A DNA stretch of 54,230 bases, taken from the IMG/VR virus record IMGVR_UViG_3300023179_000138, positions 1-54,230 of that record; one strand, given 5' to 3'. Positions 36,928-48,288 of this stretch are shown here, piece by piece. Position 1 is the first letter of the stretch; each line of letters starts with the position of its first letter. The stretch is from a virus. Taxonomy: Duplodnaviria > Caudoviricetes. The translations under genes and the position numbers were made by a program. The notes under the pieces were generated by a model. The model was not told the DNA's origin, made no database searches, and saw only the letters and a program-made list of their open reading frames with translations.

Positions 36928-38439
36928 TTATATCAAGTTGTTGATTCGTTTACCAATCCAATGCATGACTGGTACGGCCATTGAATTGCCCAAAGCCTTG
37001 TAGCGCGGGCCATCCGGTGCCTCCGGCTTGTTGCGCCACGGGATGTTGGTATAGCCATCAGGGAAACCCTGCAGCCGTTCGCACTCAGTTGGAGTCAGGC
37101 GGCGCACTTGCATGGCGGTCATCACGCCCATGCCCTTGTTGGTTCGCATCTGCGCCCCCGCTAGGATGTTCCCCGTGCAGTCGCCGGTCAGGTTGCAGTT
37201 GTCGATGTCCACGGCCACCGGCTGCGCGACGGCAAGATGGGCTGAGTAGTTGCTCCCGCACCGCATCGTAGGAGTTCCGTCTACAACGGCATCACCGCCA
37301 TAATCACAACGAGTGAACGCCACCGGCTGCGCGACACCCTGCGTGGCGTGCGTGTCCACCGTGTAGGCCGTGCCATCGTCATTCCATCCGCGCCCGTTCT
37401 GGTTCTTCTCAACGTCTCGCACATCCTGCAATGCAATGGGCTGCGCGACGGCCATCGGGTTCTTGGCCTGCAACGTCTGCACCAGATTGACATCGGTCTG
37501 CGGCGTAGACATCTGTGCGCCAAACGTGATGGGCTGCGCGATATGCTGGTCCTGATGTGTTGAGAGGGTAGACGCCAGCTCGTCGCTACCCAGATAACCT
37601 TTGCCGCCACCCTCGCAACCTTGGCGAACCTTGAAGGCGTGTGTGACTAAGTCGGTCGCGTCTTTCCAGTCCAGCGCCTTCATCGCACTCGCCGTGCCGT
37701 CATCGACGTACTCGCCGAACGCGACCATCCGCGCTGCGGTTATGGCTGCGGGTGGTGTTCCTGCTCCGCGACTGCGGCCAAGGCTTGCCTCAATGGTTCC
37801 GGCAACGCTTTGCCTCTTTTCTCGGCGCGGCGCAGAATCCCAGTACACGCTTTCGCCGACAGAAAAAAGCGCTCTGGCAGCGGACCAGTTTCCAGAACCT
37901 CGGACAGCGCACACAAAGACACGTCTGCGTCGTTGGGCCACTCCGAAGAATTGAGCATCGAGAACGCGCCATGCAACCGTGCGTCTCGGGCCAGAGACCA
38001 GACCCGCGTTGTCCCATCGTCCGTCTGGAACGAGGGGCTCACTTGCTCCGACAAGGCCTGCCAGAAAGCATCCAAAGGCGTTGTCTTTTGACGAGAGGAC
38101 GCCCGGCACGTTTTCCCAGACAACCCAGTTGGGGTCAAAGTAGTCTGCCATTTCGACAAAGGTGAGGGTGAGGTTTCCTCTGGAATCTGAAAGTCCTCCC
38201 CGAAGTCCAGCAACAGAGAAGGCTTGGCAGGGCGTTCCGCCGACGAGCAAGTCAACGTCTTCAACATTCCACTCCTTGAATTTGGTCATATCGCCCAAGT
38301 TAGGCACACCGGGGTAGTGGTGAGCCAGAACAGCACTTGGGAATGGCTCTATCTCGGCGAAACCTACTGGCGTCCAGCCCAGCGGGTGCCAAGCCACAGA
38401 GGCGGCTTCAATGCCAGAGCAAATTGATAAATATCGCAT
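36928..38439 (-). CDS. C5 cytosine DNA methyltransferase
   Basis: Motif I 'SICSGIEA', IV 'GGTPCQAFS', VI 'WENVPG', VIII 'QRRRRVF', then 'RRLTPTECERLQGFP' and 'YKALGNS'. Confidence 0.93.
   Translation of the reverse strand: MRYLSICSGIEAASVAWHPLGWTPVGFAEIEPFPSAVLAHHYPGVPNLGDMTKFKEWNVEDVDLLVGGTPCQAFSVAGLRGGLSDSRGNLTLTFVEMADYFDPNWVVWENVPGVLSSKDNAFGCFLAGLVGASEPLVPDGRWDNAGLVSGPRRTVAWRVLDAQFFGVAQRRRRVFVCAVRGSGNWSAARALFSVGESVYWDSAPRREKRQSVAGTIEASLGRSRGAGTPPAAITAARMVAFGEYVDDGTASAMKALDWKDATDLVTHAFKVRQGCEGGGKGYLGSDELASTLSTHQDQHIAQPITFGAQMSTPQTDVNLVQTLQAKNPMAVAQPIALQDVRDVEKNQNGRGWNDDGTAYTVDTHATQGVAQPVAFTRCDYGGDAVVDGTPTMRCGSNYSAHLAVAQPVAVDIDNCNLTGDCTGNILAGAQMRTNKGMGVMTAMQVRRLTPTECERLQGFPDGYTNIPWRNKPEAPDGPRYKALGNSMAVPVMHWIGKRINNLI
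37740..38267 (-). CDS. Nested alternative-frame ORF, M.EcoHK31I beta-subunit-like
   Basis: AAGGAG-TGGA-ATG start inside the MTase gene. 'LSEVLETGPLPERFFLSAKACTGILRRAEKRGKALPEPL' resembles the beta polypeptide as I recall it. Confidence 0.65.
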   Translation of the reverse strand: MLKTLTCSSAERPAKPSLLLDFGEDFQIPEETSPSPLSKWQTTLTPTGLSGKTCRASSRQKTTPLDAFWQALSEQVSPSFQTDDGTTRVWSLARDARLHGAFSMLNSSEWPNDADVSLCALSEVLETGPLPERFFLSAKACTGILRRAEKRGKALPEPLRQALAAVAEQEHHPQP

Positions 38440-38476
38440 AAATCCTCGCATACGGTTACAAGACCGTACTAAGAAT

Positions 38477-38659: not shown

Positions 38660-38739
38660 TTGGAATCCTTGTCAAATTAGTAGGAAAAATGCAACATCCG
38701 TCCGCGACTATGTCGAAATCCTTTAAGGGACAGGACGTT

Positions 38740-39891
38740 ATGAAACACTTGAGAGAGTTTGCTACGGTACGAGATCATGAGATCTTAGATACGATTGAAG
38801 AGCACGGCACCCAAGTTTTGGCGGCTAAGGCTCTTGGGATCTCCACACGGTCTGTCGAGCGTTGTATTCAGCGGCTCAAGATTCGTGCGGCCCGCCGGGG
38901 GATGAGCCCAGAGCATGACATGGTGCATATGGTCCCTGATGGCTTCATCGTCAAAGGCGTGAGTACGTATTATAACCGAGACGGTCGCCCGTCCGGTCAG
39001 TGGGTCAAGTCCACACAGGACAAACGCAACGCCCGCGACATTCAAGAAGCTTTCCTCGACGCCTTCAAAGACGACATCGTCCGAGTAGCCCCAACTAACC
39101 CCGGAACGCAAGAACCAGACGAACGCCTACTGAACACTTTTGTGTACGGTGACCCGCACATTGGCCAAAGGTCATGGTGGGAGGAAACGGGGCACGACCA
39201 TGATCTCCATAACGCCGAGCAGCTGTTCACCAAAGCTCACGACGATCTGGTCGAGCGATCGCCGGCCGCGACCACAGCTCTCATCCTAAACCTTGGGGAC
39301 TACTTCCACGCAGACGATGGCCAGAACCGCACCATGCGCAGCGGGCACCATCTAGATGTCGATGGCAGATACCAGAAGGTCCGCCGGGTTGGATTTAGGA
39401 TCCTGCGCTCCATGATCCAGATGTGCCTGCGCCGGCATCACAAGGTTGTCGTCTGGAACATCATTGGGAACCACGACGACTACTCGGCGGTAGATCTGTC
39501 CCTCTGGCTGCAGGTTGCCTATGAGAATGAGCCGAGGGTTCACATTGAGACTTCGGCCAACAAGTTTTACTACCTGCAGTTTGGCAAGGTGATGCTGGCC
39601 GCTACCCATGGCGACACGGTCCGGCAGGAACAGATGCTAGGCATCATGGCGGCCGACCAGCCTGCTATGTGGGGACAGTGCCAGTACAGATACGCCCACA
39701 TGGGCCATGTCCACCACAAGTCGCTTAGGGATCTTCCCGGCGTCTCGGTCGAGACCCACCGGGTTCTGCAGCCCTCGGATCTCTGGGCTCACAATGCCGG
39801 CTATCGCAGCCAGCGTGACGCACAATGCATCACTTACCACTGGGATCACGGCGAGTACGCCCGGACCATCGTCAACCCCAGCATGATATGA
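38740..39891 (+). CDS. HTH plus calcineurin-like metallophosphoesterase
   Basis: 'GDPHIG', 'LGDYFH', 'GNHD', 'THGD', 'MGHVHH'; N-terminal 'AAKALGISTRSVER' HTH. Start is 38689 or 38740. Confidence 0.85.
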   Translation: MKHLREFATVRDHEILDTIEEHGTQVLAAKALGISTRSVERCIQRLKIRAARRGMSPEHDMVHMVPDGFIVKGVSTYYNRDGRPSGQWVKSTQDKRNARDIQEAFLDAFKDDIVRVAPTNPGTQEPDERLLNTFVYGDPHIGQRSWWEETGHDHDLHNAEQLFTKAHDDLVERSPAATTALILNLGDYFHADDGQNRTMRSGHHLDVDGRYQKVRRVGFRILRSMIQMCLRRHHKVVVWNIIGNHDDYSAVDLSLWLQVAYENEPRVHIETSANKFYYLQFGKVMLAATHGDTVRQEQMLGIMAADQPAMWGQCQYRYAHMGHVHHKSLRDLPGVSVETHRVLQPSDLWAHNAGYRSQRDAQCITYHWDHGEYARTIVNPSMI

Positions 39892-42479: not shown

Positions 42480-42520
42480 GTCAGTCTCCAAATAAAACCC
42501 CCGGTAGGGGGTTCTCCGAT

Positions 42521-42805
42521 TTATTTGCTGGTGGTCTTGATGCTGAACACGGCGGTCGTCTTGGTGTAACGAGCGATCGCATCAGCCGGGATGTTGAACT
42601 CGGAGGCAAGAGCCTTCCAATCAACCGAAGAGCGGTTGGCTTCAACGTAGGTGGACTTGAAGAGGTTGCCCTCGAACACGGTGGGGCCACCGGCGCTAGC
42701 AACATCCTTGAGCTGGTCCTTGATTGCATCTGCCTGAGCGGTCAGGTCAGCAATCTGAGCCAGCAAAACGCCCAGCTCGTCAACTTGGGTGAGGGTACGG
42801 TCCAT
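42521..42805 (-). CDS. Early hypothetical protein
   Basis: 'VDELGVLLAQIADL...VDWKALA'; first gene after promoter cassette 3. Confidence 0.8.
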   Translation of the reverse strand: MDRTLTQVDELGVLLAQIADLTAQADAIKDQLKDVASAGGPTVFEGNLFKSTYVEANRSSVDWKALASEFNIPADAIARYTKTTAVFSIKTTSK

Positions 42806-42845
42806 GTCAGTCTCCTTAAGTTATGTCCGGCGTCGCTGCCGTAGG

Positions 42846-42895
42846 TGTAACTCTAAGTAAGACTGTCCAAAGAATACAGTGAATCTTTTGTTACA
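42846..42895 (-). promoter_or_regulatory. Early promoter cassette, copy 3
   Basis: TGTAACAAAAGATTCACTG...TAGAGTTACA; 50 bp. A CCGCCC-TTGTT-GGGCGG-TTTT terminator lies just upstream (42900-42920). Confidence 0.75.
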
Positions 42896-42938
42896 AAAGA
42901 AAACCGCCCAACAAGGGCGGCAGGTACTCGAGGAACGG

Positions 42939-43076
42939 TTACGCCATCAACATGAAGCACCAACCACACACGGTCACGGACCACCAACCCACAGTACGCT
43001 CGAAGTTCAACCAGAACTTAGGGTTGCGCATACCGTGCGGTACATCTTCCCAAAGGTTCAGCACAGTCACTTTCAT
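42939..43076 (-). CDS. 45-aa Trp-rich peptide (not in ORF track)
   Basis: MKVTVLNLWEDVPHGMRNPKFWLNFERTVGWWSVTVCGWCFMLMA; ATGA overlap. Confidence 0.5.
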   Translation of the reverse strand: MKVTVLNLWEDVPHGMRNPKFWLNFERTVGWWSVTVCGWCFMLMA

Positions 43077-43249
43077 TTCATCACCATAAAAAGGATAGGA
43101 ATGGAAACAACAGCAGCCAGACAGATCTTCGACCAGATCGGGTTCTCACTCTCTTCCACATACAGAGGAGCATCCCACCCATAAGCTTCCTTCATCGACC
43201 GGGCAATCCGGTAGTCACTTGCTCTGTACTCAGTAAACTTATTCATCAT
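43073..43249 (-). CDS. Small protein with a C-terminal TM helix
   Basis: 'RSMKEAYG' plus a hydrophobic tail; AAGGGGG RBS. Confidence 0.65.
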   Translation of the reverse strand: MMNKFTEYRASDYRIARSMKEAYGWDAPLYVEESENPIWSKICLAAVVSIPILFMVMK

Positions 43250-43269
43250 TACCCCCTTATTAGTTATTA

Positions 43270-43625
43270 GTAACCTACCCATGCTGGTGGAACGCACCTA
43301 GCCTAATCCCTAAGTGCCTTCAACTGTCTACCCACGCCGGAGCCAACAGCACCCGCCAGACGTTCGATCAGGGGCTCTGGCTTCGCCACCCCCCGCGCAT
43401 CTCAGACCTAACCCCACAGTGCGCGTATCCCTAGACCCCTGCCGTATCTCGCCGACAAGCCTAGCGGTCCTCCAAAAGCAAAACCCCGATACATTGATAG
43501 AGGCTTGGCCCTTGGCTTGGGCAACTCTGGACACGGAATCTCGGTAACGTGTTGCAGAGCCACACAAGCCCCTATCAATACACCGGGGTCTTCCGAGATT
43601 CGGTGTCTAGGTGCCACCCCAGACA
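43270..43625 (-). ncRNA. Candidate structured non-coding RNA / replication-origin region
   Basis: No credible CDS. It has a 24-bp helix whose four deviations are all G-U on the minus strand, a crossing 18-bp helix, a U-tract, a G-rich 3' half and an upstream sigma70-type promoter. Confidence 0.6.
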
Positions 43626-43631
43626 GGTCGG

Positions 43632-43660
43632 ACGTTATACAACCCGAGAGAGCGTGTCAA
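43632..43660 (-). promoter_or_regulatory. Sigma70-type promoter
   Basis: TTGACA (43660-43655), N17, TAACGT (43637-43632). Confidence 0.65.
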
Positions 43661-43910
43661 GCACCTTGGCAATCGTATCGTTCAGCACAGACATCTCTGT
43701 GGCCTTCATGACCGACCAGATGCGCTTCTGCCCATGGATCCCATTGTGGGACCCCTGATGGCAGTCCTTGCATAGAGGGATGCACAGGTACTGCTTGTGC
43801 TGCTCTATGTGGTGCGCATCGCTAGGACCAGCTGCCCCGCATACTCCGCAGGGCATCTCCTTGATCCGTTGCATGTAACGCCTCTCGGCCGCGTTCAGCT
43901 TGTTGTTCAT
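43635..43910 (-). CDS. HNH-like Zn nuclease (Ref/DUF968-like)
   Basis: 'PCGVCG', 'AHHI', 'IPLCKDCHQG...GIHG'. Confidence 0.75.
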   Translation of the reverse strand: MNNKLNAAERRYMQRIKEMPCGVCGAAGPSDAHHIEQHKQYLCIPLCKDCHQGSHNGIHGQKRIWSVMKATEMSVLNDTIAKVLDTLSRVV

Positions 43911-44160
43911 AGCTTGCTGATGATCTTGCGCCGGGTGGATGAAAAGCAGTGCCCATCTTGTGCGTACAGAGACCCGGTGACGATGTCTGCCCAGACCTTC
44001 TCTACGCGGCCCACCCACGCAATCAGCGGGGCCACCTTGATCTTCGACTCACCACATATACCCTTCACTGTGGCGTTCTTAATCTTCGGCTCAGTCCGCA
44101 AGAACCCCAGCAGGTTCTCATACGTCAGGCACAGACCGTCCTCAGACGTTGGCCAAATCT
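43907..44160 (-). CDS. Possible hypothetical protein (no canonical start found)
   Basis: An open frame fills the gap and ends with an ATGA overlap; 'WADIVTGSLY'. Confidence 0.4.
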
Positions 44161-44490
44161 TTACCCCAGTGCTCGTGCTTCTCGGCGATTGGACGCCTCG
44201 ATACTTCTCCAAACATCTACGCGTGCTTGCGCCGCTACGAGATCCCATCTCAGCTTCTCCTCGATTTCAATGGCCTCTCTGAGGCCCTTCAACAACTCTC
44301 TGTAATCCGGGTGGGCATAAGCCTCACGCTCTTGGGCTCCGACCGTCTCCTCAAAAGACTCCTTCATCAGGATGGCCTTCTTAGACTTGCGGAACTCCTC
44401 AAGGTAAATGCGCTCGGCCTTAGCCTTAGCGAACATCTCGGCGTGCTTGATGATGTAGTCAATCGCCTGATTCGGATCTATGTCTCTCAT
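44161..44490 (-). CDS. Conserved coiled-coil protein (UvsY-like recombination mediator candidate)
   Basis: 'AKAERIYLEEFRKSKKAILM...QEREAYAHPDY...WRSIEASNR'. Confidence 0.7.
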   Translation of the reverse strand: MRDIDPNQAIDYIIKHAEMFAKAKAERIYLEEFRKSKKAILMKESFEETVGAQEREAYAHPDYRELLKGLREAIEIEEKLRWDLVAAQARVDVWRSIEASNRREARALG

Positions 44491-44645
44491 GTGCTCTCCA
44501 TCTTTACCGGCAGACAGTAGTAGTTGCCGGGGGCAGTCTGCTCATACTCAGCTCGTGCGCTCTGGCACTCTTCTAGCGTGTCCAGCGTTTCAATCAGTGA
44601 CCAGTGACCGCTACTCAACAACAGCAGGTTGAACCAGATGATCAT
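44487..44645 (-). CDS. Small protein with a hydrophobic N-terminus and two Cys
   Basis: MIIWFNLLLL...EECQ...YYCLP; AGAGG RBS. Confidence 0.55.
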   Translation of the reverse strand: MIIWFNLLLLSSGHWSLIETLDTLEECQSARAEYEQTAPGNYYCLPVKMEST

Positions 44646-45033
44646 CTCGGACCTCTCTTGCGACGGTTGCCCAAGCCTCCAGACTGCATTCGACGGTGTA
44701 GTCAAAGTCAGTCCACCAATCTGCACGCTGAGTGTGTACGTGTACACACAATGGATATACAGCCCTCCACTCACCCCTCTGGCGCTTGTAGATCAGCAGC
44801 GGGATCAGTCCCTTTGATTGGTCGCAGGCTTGTGCCCACCAGCCCTTCAGATCGCCCATAGTCGCTTTGGCGTGGTCCTTGACCTCTACGGCCCAGCCGG
44901 GCACGCCAATCAAGTCCGTGTCGCCGTGGTCGTTCCTAACGCGTCTGTGCGCATCCCAGCCGGTCAGCTCGAAGATTATGTTGGCGACCGCACGCTCACC
45001 GCGCTTGCCTTTGTCTCGAGAGAACTTACTCAT
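44611..45033 (-). CDS. Holliday junction resolvase-like PD-(D/E)XK nuclease
   Basis: 'SRDKGKRGER', 'DLIG', 'AVEVK'. Confidence 0.8.
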   Translation of the reverse strand: MSKFSRDKGKRGERAVANIIFELTGWDAHRRVRNDHGDTDLIGVPGWAVEVKDHAKATMGDLKGWWAQACDQSKGLIPLLIYKRQRGEWRAVYPLCVHVHTQRADWWTDFDYTVECSLEAWATVAREVRDDHLVQPAVVE

Positions 45034-45301
45034 CGTTCTGTCCGAAAAGCTTCTGAGCCTTCTTGCGGCGATCCTCATGAATGCGAGCCATGAAGTCCTT
45101 CAGCATCTCGCTGGCGGTCTTACCGCGGATCTTCTCGCGCTCTGCCAAACCCTCCCGGCGCTGCGGCATGGGATAGGTCAGCAGGCGTTTAGCTTCGCAC
45201 TCGAGCGCCCATAGGTGGCAGTTACTACAGACCTTGCAGCCGTCCTGCAGCGTGACCATGCTGGGCGCGTACTCGCACTTGTTAGAGCCTAGGCAAGGCA
45301 T
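45026..45301 (-). CDS. Hypothetical Cys-rich protein
   Basis: 'W.LECEAK.LL...RR..L...EKIRG'. Confidence 0.65.
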   Translation of the reverse strand: MPCLGSNKCEYAPSMVTLQDGCKVCSNCHLWALECEAKRLLTYPMPQRREGLAEREKIRGKTASEMLKDFMARIHEDRRKKAQKLFGQNDE

Positions 45302-45609
45302 CCCCGCCTCCTTGGGTTCTTGGCCGATCGCCGATTCATCTCGGACTGGTGGCGGTGGCGTTTGATTTGAGACTCCGCGACCGCATGCACGTAACCCCCG
45401 GCGGTCAGCTCAAAGAACTCCTCGAGCACCGGCTGCACGCAATCCAGATCCAGCTTGACGTGCCTCGCCAGAGCCTCCGGGTTTGCAATCAGCGGGGCCT
45501 CGCTCAGGTAGTACAGATCTAACAGCCTGCGATACGCGAGATCTTCCGCGTCTGGCAGGTGATGGGTGTCTTGGATGTAGTCAGCGACGTAGAACTTGTA
45601 CCACTTCAT
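45289..45609 (-). CDS. YdaU/DUF1376-like protein (N-terminal domain only)
   Basis: 'WYKFYVADYIQDTHHL...DLAYRRLLDLYYLSEAPL'; only 106 aa. Confidence 0.8.
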   Translation of the reverse strand: MKWYKFYVADYIQDTHHLPDAEDLAYRRLLDLYYLSEAPLIANPEALARHVKLDLDCVQPVLEEFFELTAGGYVHAVAESQIKRHRHQSEMNRRSAKNPRRRGCLA

Positions 45610-45815
45610 AGATATAAATCCGGTCGCAAGTCTGCACGAGTCACGGCGCTGTTGGTCAGGCGCTCAATGGCCACCGCCATCTCTGCGCTTGGCGTGCCGC
45701 GACCATAGATAACTTGAGACAGCCACGTCCGGGTAATCCCAAGAGCAGTGGCCATGTTTGCCTTGCTGCCGTGTGGCTGTGTGAGGAAGTACTTCGCAAG
45801 CTTCGTTGGTTCCAT
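45606..45815 (-). CDS. Cro/YdaS-like HTH regulator
   Basis: 'MATALGITRTWLSQ...IERLTNSAVTRADLRPDLY'. Confidence 0.85.
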   Translation of the reverse strand: MEPTKLAKYFLTQPHGSKANMATALGITRTWLSQVIYGRGTPSAEMAVAIERLTNSAVTRADLRPDLYL

Positions 45816-45927
45816 GGTGCCTCCTTGAACTCCATGTTACACCGTATGTCTACTATGGCATAGATGTTGTAAGTGTGAAAATGATGTGTTATGGTGGTGT
45901 TGTCGTACCAAACGACACGGAGAAATT
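45816..45927. promoter_or_regulatory. Divergent promoter region
   Basis: AT-richer 110-bp gap where transcription switches strand. Confidence 0.55.
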
Positions 45928-46083
45928 ATGGACATTGACGACGCATACGAGGCTGCCCATCAGGCAGAGCTTGAGCTGCAACAGATGCTTGAAGAAGCTT
46001 TACAGCGTGTTGAGCGCAAAGAGGCGACTAAAGAAGACATATCTATTTTGAGATACGCGTGTGGACTAGGGAGAAAGACATGA
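45928..46083 (+). CDS. Small hypothetical protein
   Basis: GGAG-N4-ATG; MDIDDAYEAAHQ... Confidence 0.65.
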   Translation: MDIDDAYEAAHQAELELQQMLEEALQRVERKEATKEDISILRYACGLGRKT

Positions 46084-46760
46084 TCGTTGCAAAAGGCACA
46101 GATAGCGGCAAAAAATTTAAGTTAGTTCCGGCGGGTTTACATCTTGCGCGGTGCTACAGAGCCATTGATCTTGGAACGCAGATTTTTCTCACAAAAGGCG
46201 AAGAGAAAAAAAATCGCAAGGTGCTCATTCAGTTTGAGGTGCACGGCGAAGACGAGTTTGGCAACCCGATGGTCACCGATAACGGCGACCCCATGATAAT
46301 TGGCAAAAACTACACCCTGAGCCTCGGCGAGATGGCCGCTCTGCGGAAACATCTACAGGTTTGGCGGGGCCGAGAGTTTACGCCAAAAGAGTTGGAAGGT
46401 TTCCAGCTCTCCAACATCCTCGATCAGTGGGCGATGTTGGCCGTCATCCATACCACCGGTAACGATGGCCGCACCTACGCAAACATTGATTCGGTGATGC
46501 CTGTACCGGCAAACATCAAAAAGGCTGGTCTGCCTGTTGGTCACAACAAGCCGGTCATCTTCTCGATTGACAGCCCGGACATGGAGATCTTTGAGAGTTT
46601 TTCGGATGGCCTCAAAGCAAGAATTGAGAAGTCACCGGAGTGGCGGTCGCGTATGTCTTATGCACCAGCCCCTGTTAGGGATTCACGCCCGGTGGCTCAA
46701 CAGCATTCACGACCGGCAGCGCCGGCTGTGGAGTTTGAAGAAGACGACGTACCTTTCTGA
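46080..46760 (+). CDS. Putative single-stranded DNA-binding protein
   Basis: 'PAGLHLARCYRAIDLGTQ', 'YTLSLGEMAALRK', and an SSB-type acidic tail 'EEDDVPF'. Confidence 0.7.
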   Translation: MIVAKGTDSGKKFKLVPAGLHLARCYRAIDLGTQIFLTKGEEKKNRKVLIQFEVHGEDEFGNPMVTDNGDPMIIGKNYTLSLGEMAALRKHLQVWRGREFTPKELEGFQLSNILDQWAMLAVIHTTGNDGRTYANIDSVMPVPANIKKAGLPVGHNKPVIFSIDSPDMEIFESFSDGLKARIEKSPEWRSRMSYAPAPVRDSRPVAQQHSRPAAPAVEFEEDDVPF

Positions 46761-46770
46761 GGAGAAAAGC

Positions 46771-46977
46771 ATGATTTTGAAGATTAAGCACAACGGCGTT
46801 GAGATTGAGTTCAGCGCGAACGATTTGCAACAGGTTGCCCAAAAGGTGTCCGAGGTTGCAAAGCCCGCAGTAGCGAAGTCCGTGGTTACCAAGGTCGTGC
46901 GCGGCCGCGGTCGCCCGAAAGGTAGTAAGAGCAAACCCTCGGTCAAGGTTGTCCCGCCTATTGAATTGGCGGCTTGA
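46771..46977 (+). CDS. Small AT-hook protein
   Basis: 'RGRGRPKGSK'; GAGGAG RBS. Confidence 0.7.
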   Translation: MILKIKHNGVEIEFSANDLQQVAQKVSEVAKPAVAKSVVTKVVRGRGRPKGSKSKPSVKVVPPIELAA

Positions 46978-47021
46978 TCTAAAGCCGATGGGTTGTCCAC
47001 GAGTTAATTGGGAGAGCAAAA

Positions 47022-47219
47022 ATGCAAAGCGATTTCATGCAACGGCAGTACGAGGTGGCACAGCAACTCATCGGCTGCATGACCACCGACATTGAGTATC
47101 AGCGTCAACTGGCTGACCTGTCTCATCACTATGAGCACAAGCTGGCACAACGCGACCGCAAAATCAGCAAACTTGAATCCACGATTCAGGCGATGCAGGT
47201 TTTGAACGGCGCTCGCTAA
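47022..47219 (+). CDS. Small coiled-coil hypothetical protein
   Basis: 65 aa with GGAG RBS. Confidence 0.65.
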   Translation: MQSDFMQRQYEVAQQLIGCMTTDIEYQRQLADLSHHYEHKLAQRDRKISKLESTIQAMQVLNGAR

Positions 47220-47530
47220 TGTCCGTCAACTTTGAAATCCTGCAGTCCAATGTCATTCAATGGGCGTTGGACCGCGGGATTGTTCATCACTCAAATCCTC
47301 GGGCTCAACTGCTGAAGATGTTCAGCGAGGCCGGGGAGCTTGCAGACGGCGAAGCAAAAGGAAAGCTTGACGACATCGAAGATGCCGTTGGCGACATCGC
47401 TGTCTGTCTCATCATCTACTGCCACTTCTATGGCCTGACCGTGCCGAAGTGTCTCGAAGCCGCTTGGCATGAGATCAAGGACCGCAAAGGTCGAATGATT
47501 GAAGGTGGCGTCTTCGTGAAGGAGTCTTGA
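47219..47530 (+). CDS. MazG-like nucleotide pyrophosphohydrolase
   Basis: 'QLLKMFSEAGELA', 'EDAVGD', 'AWHEIKDRKG...GVFVKE'. Confidence 0.85.
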   Translation: MSVNFEILQSNVIQWALDRGIVHHSNPRAQLLKMFSEAGELADGEAKGKLDDIEDAVGDIAVCLIIYCHFYGLTVPKCLEAAWHEIKDRKGRMIEGGVFVKES

Positions 47531-48288
47531 TGTCTATCGTCGTGTCCGAGCCAAAGGTTTCGGAGCATTGGTATTCCCGCGATGGTATGCCGATGTATAC
47601 CGTCGAGTCAGCAAAGGGCACGCAACGCCCTACAACGCTCCGTGACGCACGCAAACTGAATCTTGTACCCTCGGTGACCACCATCATCAATGTGGCCGCC
47701 AAACCCGCTCTTACGCAGTGGCTGCAGAAGCAGGTCTTGATGGCTGCACTGACTCTGCCGAAGGTCAACGATGAGACCGAGGAGCAGTACATCGCTCGCA
47801 TCATTCTTGACGCTAAGGAGCAGGGTAAGGCAGCGGCCGATCGTGGCACTGAGATCCACGAGGCAATCCAGAAGGCTTACGAGGACCAGCACTATCCGTT
47901 CGGCTTCTCGGAGTTTGTCACTGGCTGCCAGAAGACTTTGGAAGACTTCTTTGGTAAGCGTGACTGGATCTGCGAACGATCGTTTGCCCACGACCTAGGA
48001 TACGGCGGGAAGTGTGACCTGCACTGCGATGGTCTGGTGGTGGACATCAAGACCAAAGAGTTTGCAGAGGGCGACGACGTAACTTTGTACGACGACTACA
48101 TGCTGCAGCTGGCTGCCTACCGGGTAGGTCTGGGTATGCCCGAGGCACGCTGCGCTAACGTCTTTGTGTCCCGCAACAACCCCGGGGTGGTGTCCGTCTA
48201 TGAGTGGCCAGAAGAGGACATCAAGCGCGGCTGGGCGATGTTCTGCTGCCTGCTCGAGTACTGGCAGCTCAGAAACAATCACGTGTAA
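47530..48288 (+). CDS. PD-(D/E)XK exonuclease
   Basis: 'PSVTTII', 'RGTEIH', 'YGGKCDL', 'VDIKT', 'QLAAY'. Confidence 0.85.
   Translation: MSIVVSEPKVSEHWYSRDGMPMYTVESAKGTQRPTTLRDARKLNLVPSVTTIINVAAKPALTQWLQKQVLMAALTLPKVNDETEEQYIARIILDAKEQGKAAADRGTEIHEAIQKAYEDQHYPFGFSEFVTGCQKTLEDFFGKRDWICERSFAHDLGYGGKCDLHCDGLVVDIKTKEFAEGDDVTLYDDYMLQLAAYRVGLGMPEARCANVFVSRNNPGVVSVYEWPEEDIKRGWAMFCCLLEYWQLRNNHV

Follow-up and report, generated by a model that had tools for sequence, protein, structure and literature searches.

What does a promoter-driven, folded non-coding RNA do between the early genes and a block of small genes in a phage genome? The question is raised by a cassette at 43660-43270 on the minus strand of the virus record IMGVR_UViG_3300023179_000138 (54,230 bp, estimated completeness 96%), the whole of which was analysed and is referred to here as the window. 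A first-pass annotation, made from the letters alone, had described the cassette as a promoter followed by a structured RNA with two crossing helices, named S and L, and had proposed either an attenuator controlling read-through or a ColE1-RNAII-like primer forming an R-loop origin, possibly in an undescribed class of non-coding RNA.

Comparison with related viral loci divides the cassette into two parts. The promoter-proximal part of the RNA (43626-43472, minus strand, ~155 nt), which we call module U, is an uncatalogued and widespread phage leader RNA of two subtypes. It combines a hypervariable helix, kept paired by compensating changes, with a probable terminator, and most likely serves as a gate for read-through. 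The 3' half is already known as the orphan Rfam family RF02932 (Betaproteobacteria-1). The prediction of an undescribed class of RNA therefore holds for the first ~155 nt, which have no Rfam match, and fails for the G-rich part.

Crossing helices in the leader

The elements of the cassette, in the order in which they would be transcribed, are as follows.

43655-43660, minus strand: -35 hexamer TTGACA, read from the sequence and conserved in position
43632-43637, minus strand: -10 hexamer TAACGT (TAnnnT) after a 17-nt spacer, overlapping the TAA stop codon of the upstream gene
43604-43625, minus strand: 5' hairpin with an 8-bp stem and the loop GUGGCA, which contains the invariant UGGCA (minimum free energy (MFE) fold and prefix folding)
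43593-43610, minus strand: 5' strand of helix S, overlapping the 3' arm of the 5' hairpin; the extended form reaches ~43619
43565-43592, minus strand: 5' arm of helix L (MFE fold, complementarity search and alignment)
43508-43561, minus strand: interior of L, with hairpins 43561-43523 and 43522-43508 and a three-way junction (folding and alignment)
43527-43544, minus strand: 3' strand of helix S, inside the L loop; the extended form runs to the invariant UUGCCC at 43524-43519
43480-43507, minus strand: 3' arm of helix L (MFE fold, complementarity search and alignment)
43474-43483, minus strand: U-tract UUUUGCUUUU, the intrinsic-terminator-like 3' end of module U
43467-43473, minus strand: linker between module U and the catalogued RNA, read from the sequence
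43351-43466, minus strand: Betaproteobacteria-1 RNA, RF02932 (cmscan), including GGTGGCGAAGCC
43275-43350, minus strand: 3' extension beyond the Rfam model, with conserved GGCUCCG, GAAGGC, GGCUAGGU and CCACC

Relatives of module U in the window were collected with a 15-mer from its interior, which occurs in at least 119 viral stretches, 14 of them with the hairpin and a T-run. These 14 together with locus L058 and the window, after exclusion of two truncated copies, gave 13 distinct window-type copies among the matches listed; one of the loci, L313, is identical to the window throughout module U. The promoter that the annotation had read as TTGACA-N17-TAACGT is present and would start transcription at ~43626-43624, judging from its position. 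Its placement is kept in all 11 distinct upstream sequences of window-type relatives, compared with 0.18 expected from shuffles, where a promoter was counted if it had a -35 hexamer with at least 4/6 matches, a spacer of 16-18 nt and a TAnnnT -10 hexamer ending 6-7 nt before a conserved GUCUG. The sequence around it is otherwise unrelated among several of these relatives. Together with the conserved helices described below, the position of the promoter argues for a promoter-driven structured RNA. Two other readings of promoter-like words were rejected. One, considered by eye, placed a sigma-70 promoter of the downstream RNA within L (TTGCCC and TATCAA, 19 nt apart), with the wrong spacing and start position; the other took the invariant TGGCA as a sigma-54 element, for which the GG-to-GC spacing is wrong. 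No sigma-70-like hexamer pair was seen by eye between the U-tract and Betaproteobacteria-1, an interval of which no scan was made.

Helix L has a core of 24 bp (43588-43565 with 43507-43484) containing exactly four G-U pairs and no mismatch by hand count, as had been claimed, and is followed by UUUUGCUUUU. Complementarity search and the MFE fold extend it to 28 bp (43592-43565 with 43507-43480), so that the first four U of the tract double as the final four bases of the helix. The fixed G-U pairs would be C-A on the opposite strand, which indicates that the minus strand is the RNA. The helix contains a base of terminator type (CCCCGG/UCGGGG) ahead of the U-tract, the combination of stem base and U-run by which intrinsic terminators are recognized; T-runs of 5-10 right behind a G+C-rich stem base are classic intrinsic terminators. 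A T-run follows the hairpin in 13/13 window-type copies and is likewise kept in the main subtype described below. Helix L and its U-tract are probably an intrinsic terminator, as far as sequence can tell. The 5' hairpin, previously placed at 43624-43605, spans 43625-43604.

Over 359 nt the RNA folds at -157.2 kcal/mol (z = -2.67), and 0 of 100 shuffles fold as well. The nested MFE structure consists of the 5' hairpin and L with its interior three-way junction, without helix S. Across copies, the 5' hairpin is 97.1% paired, with both-side changes in 2/8 pairs, and the 28 pairs of L (93.3% paired) include 14 that are invariant, seven with changes on one side and four with changes on both sides. 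Both-side changes affect 7/10 pairs of the first hairpin in the interior of L, and the second (GCCC/GGGC) is invariant. Taken together, these helices are paired in 91.6% of 665 cells, as against 84.1% in shuffled alignments (none of 500 reaching the observed value), and sliding the partner strand lowers their pairing to 30-46%.

Helix S, pairing 43610-43593 with 43544-43527 at 16/18 positions and crossing L, also stood up to comparison. Its columns are too divergent for MAFFT to align, so it was tested without alignment. A cognate S duplex of 14-20 bp is present in 13/13 copies (-18.2 to -25.8 kcal/mol), whereas the 156 non-cognate combinations average -12.6 kcal/mol and 15% of them reach the weakest cognate value, a share that includes combinations of near-identical copies. 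Pairwise identity is 30% in the 5' strand of S and 35% in the 3' strand, versus 82% in the remainder of module U. The contrast is sharpest between loci L229 and L230, in which seven of eight differing alignment columns fall in S (four in one strand and three in the other) with pairing preserved at those seven. Covariation across relatives shows both of the crossing helices to be real and evolutionarily maintained. Variation of the same kind may exist among strains: in one DNA sequencing run (X4) module U (43496-43631) was split into five short, highly differing contigs while both flanks were continuous, which points to a hot spot of strain variation. Two variants in this run, 43601 C>T and 43536 G>A, would compensate within S if linked; they lie on separate contigs of similar depth.

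A second subtype of module U, which is the main one by number, was first met upstream of Betaproteobacteria-1 in other viral loci (90 stretches), and a search with the pattern of its P2 and P3 helices found it in at least 120 viral stretches. It measures 93-119 nt, is present in more than 100 viral contigs and consists of a promoter, a P1 hairpin with a 6-8-nt loop, a purine-rich linker, a long hairpin and a run of T6-T10; the long hairpin is made up of P2, a 2x2 internal loop with conserved CA/GY, P3 and an apical hairpin. The T-run follows 100/103 raw pattern matches, and after it comes a linker of 15-25 nt that is partly conserved. A promoter stands at a fixed distance in 48/99 distinct upstream sequences, compared with 1.7 in shuffles, and many of the remaining loci, by eye, have an extended -10 element right after a preceding terminator.

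The counterpart of S in the main subtype is a contact in which the P1 loop pairs with a complementary internal loop of 7 nt in the 3' strand of the long hairpin. At least 46 different P1-loop words occur among 120 distinct parsed loci, the parse having dropped an uncounted number of loci with less than 6 nt of complementarity, a short flank or no T-run. Among 30 representatives, chosen to differ in word (one for each distinct word starting with GU), the longest cognate Watson-Crick run is 7-8 in 30/30, and 2/870 non-cognate pairs reach 7. On a MAFFT alignment the kissing helix is 73% paired, with both sides changing in 5/7 pairs despite 11 rows that are out of register. The whole structure is 92.7% paired versus 77.0% when shuffled (0/500), and RNAalifold recovers P1, P2 and P3 with 12/24 compensated pairs. 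A complement to the four opening bases of the P1 loop is weakly enriched just behind the T-run, occurring within 20 nt in 32/98 cognate and 58/294 non-cognate cases (p = 0.012, uncorrected for relatedness), which could mark a second pairing site in read-through transcripts or could be an effect of relatedness. Three loci carry sub-threshold matches to RF02278, the Betaproteobacteria toxic small RNA, at 29-34 bits against 50 (L008:2272-2330, L191:195-256 and L202:163-223). The match in L008 lies just upstream of module U, in a place where, by eye, a small unit of its own runs from promoter to terminator and is pyrimidine-rich towards its 5' end.

Module U itself had no match in Rfam 15 at E up to 1 within 43000-43900, where the sole match is RF02932 starting at 43466, nor in 14 related loci (E up to 0.1) and 20 more (E up to 0.01). 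No description of it was found in Rfam 15 or in literature searches on phage antitermination, leader and kissing RNAs, and the P4 CI RNA.

The catalogued RNA, exchangeable followers and gene context

The ~200 nt of G-rich non-coding sequence noted behind the U-tract are present, including GCGGGGGGTGGCGAAGCC (43396-43379, minus strand) and GGTGGCGAAGCC; their 5' portion, 43466-43351, is a catalogued RNA. Searched against Rfam 15 with cmscan, this portion matches RF02932 at 98.9 bits (gathering score 49.4) over model positions 1-120 of 120, so that an Infernal search, suggested earlier as a check on the whole RNA, accounts for the 3' part and leaves module U unmatched. The match has the three hairpins of the family and its loop and junction words (GUCGG..ACGGCAG, CUGUGGG..CUGA, GGUGGCGAAG and CGGGU), and its helices are kept by compensating changes across 18 loci. 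Rfam types RF02932 as an sRNA (small RNA) gene, and a literature search on Betaproteobacteria-1 found no paper on its function; membership therefore names the RNA and leaves the mechanism unexplained. The family presumably stems from a survey of 224 motifs. The motif Betaproteobacteria-1 is not named in the main text of that survey (PMC5737381).

The Rfam model spans only about a third of the non-coding stretch, and conservation runs ~75-90 nt past it in the same 18 loci. Within this extension, CCACC at 43290-43286 is predicted to pair with GGUGG at 43390-43386, a long-range helix that is invariant and thus unproven. The extension also holds a direct repeat, with copies at 43340-43328 and 43287-43275 (minus strand) in the window. 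The repeat is a word of 8-10 nt, one copy after GGCUCCR and the other after CACCA, that is phage-specific and duplicated within each phage: 27/44 distinct loci match at seven or more of nine positions, and the cognate mean is 5.95 versus 3.55 for non-cognate pairs. No complement of the repeat word was found within 1.5 kb.

Module U is not tied to this RNA. The window subtype precedes Betaproteobacteria-1 (in the window, L212, L288, L292 and L313) or other sequences. For the main subtype, 103 distinct loci among the matches listed had at least 200 nt downstream, and these continue into Betaproteobacteria-1 (7), a look-alike with the same three-hairpin grammar (10), four recurrent G-rich non-coding sequences (28, 20, 7 and 3) or unclassified sequence (28). 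Module U thus fronts at least six kinds of downstream sequence. The recurrent G-rich followers other than Betaproteobacteria-1, at least five in number (L092-L211), lie 15-25 nt past the T-run, start by eye with CCGTACTCC.., CCSTCAGRGCGSG.. or GTCGGTGG..GGTGGGCGAA, and look like uncatalogued structured RNAs; no Rfam match was found in 20 sampled loci at E up to 0.01. Three followers (L197, L199 and L203) appear by eye to contain a transfer RNA (tRNA)-like insert with arms of the GGTGTAGCTCAG..GGTTCGAAGCC type, and a weak tRNA match is present at L201:412-477 (33.6 bits, cut-off 29). At another locus (L074:1487-2299, minus strand of the locus) seven tRNAs above the cut-off and one sub-threshold tRNA-Sec-like match form an array behind Betaproteobacteria-1, in the same orientation. 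The orphan family RF02932 is made approachable by this arrangement, since it often stands behind a portable promoter-plus-terminator leader with a strictly paired hypervariable helix, and the same leader also fronts several uncatalogued G-rich non-coding sequences.

Betaproteobacteria-1 also occurs by itself in a cultured phage. Acidovorax phage AP1 (L448, OM049504.1), a phage of Paracidovorax oryzae, carries the full RNA at 2461-2584 (93.4 bits) without module U, 35 nt past its primase gene in an unannotated gap of 294 nt, which makes AP1 a possible bench system for the catalogued RNA. Among isolated phages, 431 nt of the window matched just 84 nt of AP1, inside the catalogued RNA, and the main-subtype module U with its downstream RNA was unmatched. 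The window-type pattern had 0 matches in one genome per species across 185,579 species. The main-type pattern gave 117 raw matches in genome contigs, of which 16 passed the T-run filter and ~10 are real by eye, the rest being chance matches in coding DNA. Seven titled matches comprise four metagenome-assembled genomes of Betaproteobacteria, Burkholderiales-type or Comamonadaceae origin, one Gammaproteobacteria strain and two Chitinophagia and Synechococcus bins, the last two possibly through mis-binning. The stretch itself is present in sequencing runs labelled freshwater or lake water, and two runs from studies other than the possible source (X4 and X9) contain long near-identical contigs. 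The best explanation is that the cassette belongs to a phage of freshwater Betaproteobacteria, and to our knowledge almost nothing is known about phage regulation in that group.

In the window, the genes and open reading frames (ORFs) around the cassette are arranged as follows.

46059-48288, plus strand: block with MazG-like and exonuclease-like genes
45815-45606, minus strand: Cro/YdaS-like gene, first of the early block
Further members of the early block, minus strand: a DUF1376 'primosomal' domain protein, a DUF7696 protein, a PDDEXK resolvase-like protein, a 109-aa protein and a 127-aa protein
43635-44018, minus strand: the gene of the 127-aa protein, zinc-ribbon/HNH-like, last of the Cro-like early block and upstream of the cassette
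43660-43270, minus strand: the cassette under study, after the early block and before the small-ORF block
43073-43246, minus strand: 57-aa gene with a hydrophobic C-terminal stretch and no Pfam match, the first gene downstream of the cassette
Down to ~40286, minus strand: small-ORF block of ~12 ORFs without family matches, followed by a terminator-like hairpin at 39912-39894
Beyond the small ORFs: genes for a C5 DNA methyltransferase, a tRNA (36921-36851), the small and large terminase subunits, portal, head and tail proteins and an endolysin

The 127-aa protein upstream matches phrog_1588 at 1.2e-15 and, weakly and under the cut-off, DUF968 (PF06147, E = 9e-4), and it is not among the genes shared beside the RNA at other loci. 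In 82 distinct loci, downstream neighbours include a RecE-like exonuclease (17) and RecT-like genes (11), upstream neighbours include helicase (11) and primase (8) genes, and RusA, Cro/YdaS-like and H-NS-like genes also occur. The earlier remark that the genome has no recognisable polymerase, primase or helicase is borne out at the level of family scans, in which no such match was found among 45 ORFs searched against PHROGs and 24 against Pfam. The sole replication-type matches are the 106-aa DUF1376 'primosomal' domain and a partial one in the 507-aa C5 cytosine methyltransferase (36928-38451, minus strand), whose residues 18-233 match phrog_864 'DNA primase' strongly (2.2e-57); this match probably reflects a methylase domain shared with fused proteins and not a primase.

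A generic scan of 20 kb gave as its best sigma-70-like site 36956-36927 on the minus strand (TTGGTA, 18 nt, TATAAT with TG, 10/12), directly before the phage tRNA gene (36921-36851) and the packaging genes; this site may be a late promoter in its own right. Strong terminator-like hairpins occur twice on the minus strand around the small ORFs, at 42921-42903 within the small-ORF block and at 39912-39894 at its end, the latter convergent with a plus-strand exonuclease-like gene (38689-39891). Terminator-like hairpins in the scan number 22, compared with 16.4 +/- 3.8 in shuffles, which is no excess.

Proposed gating of read-through and its alternatives

Of the two functions first proposed, control of read-through by an attenuator is the one we prefer, as suggested by the crossed conserved helices, the U-tract and the folding of prefixes. 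In prefix folding the 5' hairpin comes first, and the prefix to 43527 forms part of S beside it. In the prefix to 43515 the MFE structure is a long extended S that opens the 5' hairpin, using the invariant UGGCA together with UUGCC at 43523-43519. Extended S remains the MFE structure until ~43500, and L with a re-formed 5' hairpin takes over from ~43495, the final energy being -77.0 kcal/mol with L and -63.5 kcal/mol with S enforced. We infer that L terminates and that S competes with it rather than coexisting as a pseudoknot. The RNA would start at ~43625 from a sigma-70-type promoter, S would form early, before the 3' arm of L is made, and the emergence of that arm would make L thermodynamically favoured. 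The balance between the two would then set whether polymerase stops, releasing an RNA of ~150 nt, or reads through into the Betaproteobacteria-1 RNA (43466 to ~43275) and the small-gene block behind it. We hold this S-versus-L attenuator tentatively, as a reading that has somewhat less than an even chance of being correct in this form.

Several observations weigh against it. S and L share no nucleotides, and S could sterically coexist with the lower part of L as a pseudoknot. The 7-bp loop contact of the main subtype can form with the terminator fully intact and is perhaps purely architectural, and the prefix folds of that subtype give only a transient nested alternative. No effector, whether protein, RNA or ligand, was identified, and no protein family is constant beside the cassette among the 82 loci. 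No third copy of the S word was found: a search for the exact pairing word near the other loci found none, and in the window six matches with up to two mismatches compare with 3.3 expected. Complementarity between the 5' hairpin and Betaproteobacteria-1 was also noticed in the window; judged by eye it is lost in L212 and L058, and it was taken to be chance. Betaproteobacteria-1 stands without module U in several viral loci, behind Toprim or primase genes, and module U is therefore not required for that RNA. The generic scanner missed both the promoter of the cassette (its -10 rule demands 4/6) and the L terminator (whose loop exceeds the 8 nt permitted); their significance was accordingly taken from comparison with relatives.

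The transcript evidence counts on both sides. It consists of assembled contigs, which cannot reveal starts, ends or strand. A 220-nt contig from a lake metatranscriptome matches 43466-43275 with five differences over its first 192 nt, and its remainder is unlike the window. The contig itself stops exactly at the first base of the RF02932 match, with no letters beyond it, and excludes module U. It hints, weakly, at a species of the catalogued RNA whose 5' end lies at 43466; read-through RNA from the U promoter was not seen, and under the attenuator such an end would need processing. In a second RNA-library run, a contig lies only within the upstream gene. Module U is uncovered in these two runs, which hold small shares of the stretch, and this says nothing of its absence.

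The contig has a ready place in another explanation, in which module U is a free-standing small RNA of ~150 nt that always ends at L and acts in trans on a host or phage target, for example in the manner of Hfq-type RNAs with their purine-rich linker and U-tail. S and the loop contact would then be architectural, part of a compact pseudoknotted fold that gives the RNA stability or a surface for binding. Its adjacency to Betaproteobacteria-1 would then reflect a shared 'RNA island' and not regulation. Such an RNA should have a promoter of its own and a strong terminator; the promoter is there, and each copy ends in a strong terminator-like structure. The terminator-compatible loop contact and the purine-rich P1-P2 linker of the main subtype agree with it, and so do the contig that excludes module U and the occurrence of Betaproteobacteria-1 without it. 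It has more difficulty with what lies downstream. The downstream sequences that were read all have a same-strand G-rich non-coding stretch after 15-25 nt, in which no promoter-like hexamers were seen by eye (no scan was made), and conservation extends to the spacing and to some of the linker. Moreover, no conserved single-stranded seed was identified, and the most variable part, S, pairs within the same RNA. We regard a free-standing small RNA as unlikely, while giving it serious weight.

A further possibility keeps the gate of the attenuator and adds an address to it. S is the most variable part of module U yet is always compensated, and already under the attenuator it is for this reason suspected to be a specificity word, through which U RNA, once released, may act on matching leaders while they are being made. 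Strict pairing with such variability recalls the words that set specificity in RNA-controlled immunity and incompatibility. The terminated fold separates the two halves of the S word, placing one across the linker and the 3' arm of the 5' hairpin and the other in the loop of a hairpin. Module U could then be a control device of uncultured freshwater phages that is made of RNA alone and addresses itself, the released leader pairing in trans with nascent leaders that share its word. This pairing would set the number of polymerases that read into the cargo RNA, be it Betaproteobacteria-1 or one of the at least five uncatalogued structured RNAs, and the S word would confer specificity in the way known from the immunity or incompatibility systems of P4 and P1/P7, but by way of an unrelated fold and over a whole family of large phage RNAs. 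We rate this self-addressed device as improbable.

It is also conceivable that module U and Betaproteobacteria-1 make up one non-coding RNA of ~350 nt, in which L is an internal domain kept from terminating by S or the loop contact. The short, fixed spacing to the next RNA with its partly conserved linker, and the lack of promoter-like hexamers by eye before that RNA (again with no scan made), agree with a single long RNA, and the invariance of 14/28 pairs of L goes beyond the needs of a plain terminator. Against it, the RNA-library contig stops exactly at 43466, and T-runs of 5-10 after a G+C-rich stem base are what classic terminators have. Module U is also found with at least six downstream kinds and Betaproteobacteria-1 with two U subtypes or none, as expected of separable modules. 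Such a composite RNA seems to us quite improbable.

A small-molecule riboswitch, with an aptamer and expression platform in which a ligand stabilises S or the loop contact, would share the pseudoknot-plus-terminator architecture in a 5' leader and could explain why nucleotides of internal loops, for instance the 2x2 CA/GY of the main subtype, are conserved. The pocket for a ligand should keep its sequence, whereas the pairing words here are hypervariable and the two subtypes share topology without a conserved core; there is also no association with metabolic genes and no Rfam riboswitch match. We consider a riboswitch very unlikely.

Least credible of all, and close to dismissed, is the ColE1-RNAII-like pre-primer whose G-rich part forms an R-loop priming phage DNA replication: the RNA is promoter-driven, structured and G-rich, the genome has no primase, helicase or polymerase family match and the cassette lies just past replication/recombination-type early genes, but the G-rich part is a catalogued fold with compensating changes, an intrinsic-terminator-like hairpin precedes it, neither a plus-strand promoter-like site (generic scan, 42500-46200) nor an RNAI or other Rfam match was found, and elsewhere the cassette stands ahead of RecE/RecT-like genes, behind primase genes or ahead of tRNA arrays.

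Comparison with known systems

ColE1 offers a likeness of parts. In ColE1, RNA I is transcribed antisense to RNA II from one stretch of DNA, so that no compensation at a second site is needed, and a kissing-loop pairing sets specificity. Module U is likewise a structured, promoter-driven RNA, but its partners are two covarying segments of one strand, no antisense promoter-like site accompanies it and a terminator follows.

The late leader of phage lambda is closer in layout. There, the PR' promoter gives rise to the 6S RNA, which ends at the tR' terminator unless Q brings about antitermination. Here too a strong promoter after the last early gene is followed by a leader of ~150-200 nt, an intrinsic-terminator-like end and a co-directional gene block. 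The control differs, as no Q-family Pfam match was found in 24 neighbouring proteins and no protein gene is conserved next to the cassette. The cassette elsewhere precedes early-type genes (RecE/RecT-like), and the leader here has a conserved long-range helix.

A role for the catalogued RNA is suggested by the put RNAs of phage HK022, cis-acting processive antiterminators of ~70 nt with two stem-loops that stand before the terminators they suppress and bind the zinc-binding domain of beta' (PMC9378689). Betaproteobacteria-1 might by analogy be a phage operon-leader RNA that acts on polymerase without a dedicated protein. The catalogued RNA differs from put in having three hairpins and a tail over ~190 nt and in its position behind the first terminator.

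In its logic the cassette comes closest to the P4 immunity leader (seqA, CI RNA, seqC) together with isrK of Gifsy-1. These are described as a prophage promoter with a short RNA ending at a terminator, whose read-through transcripts carry a stable processed non-coding RNA (STnc1160 at isrK) and then genes, under the control of short complementary words (PMC4825925). Module U would share a (pro)phage promoter, a short terminated RNA, read-through into a stable structured non-coding RNA and genes, and control resting on short complementary words that differ among relatives. It differs from P4 in that the words sit in one short RNA, where P4 divides them between a processed RNA and its two targets. 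Neither the window nor any of 34 related loci matched the C4/CI family (C4, RF01695), and a third site was looked for without success. Should S prove to be a specificity word, module U would be a second, structurally unrelated form of RNA-only control of phage transcription, after immunity of the P4/P1 type.

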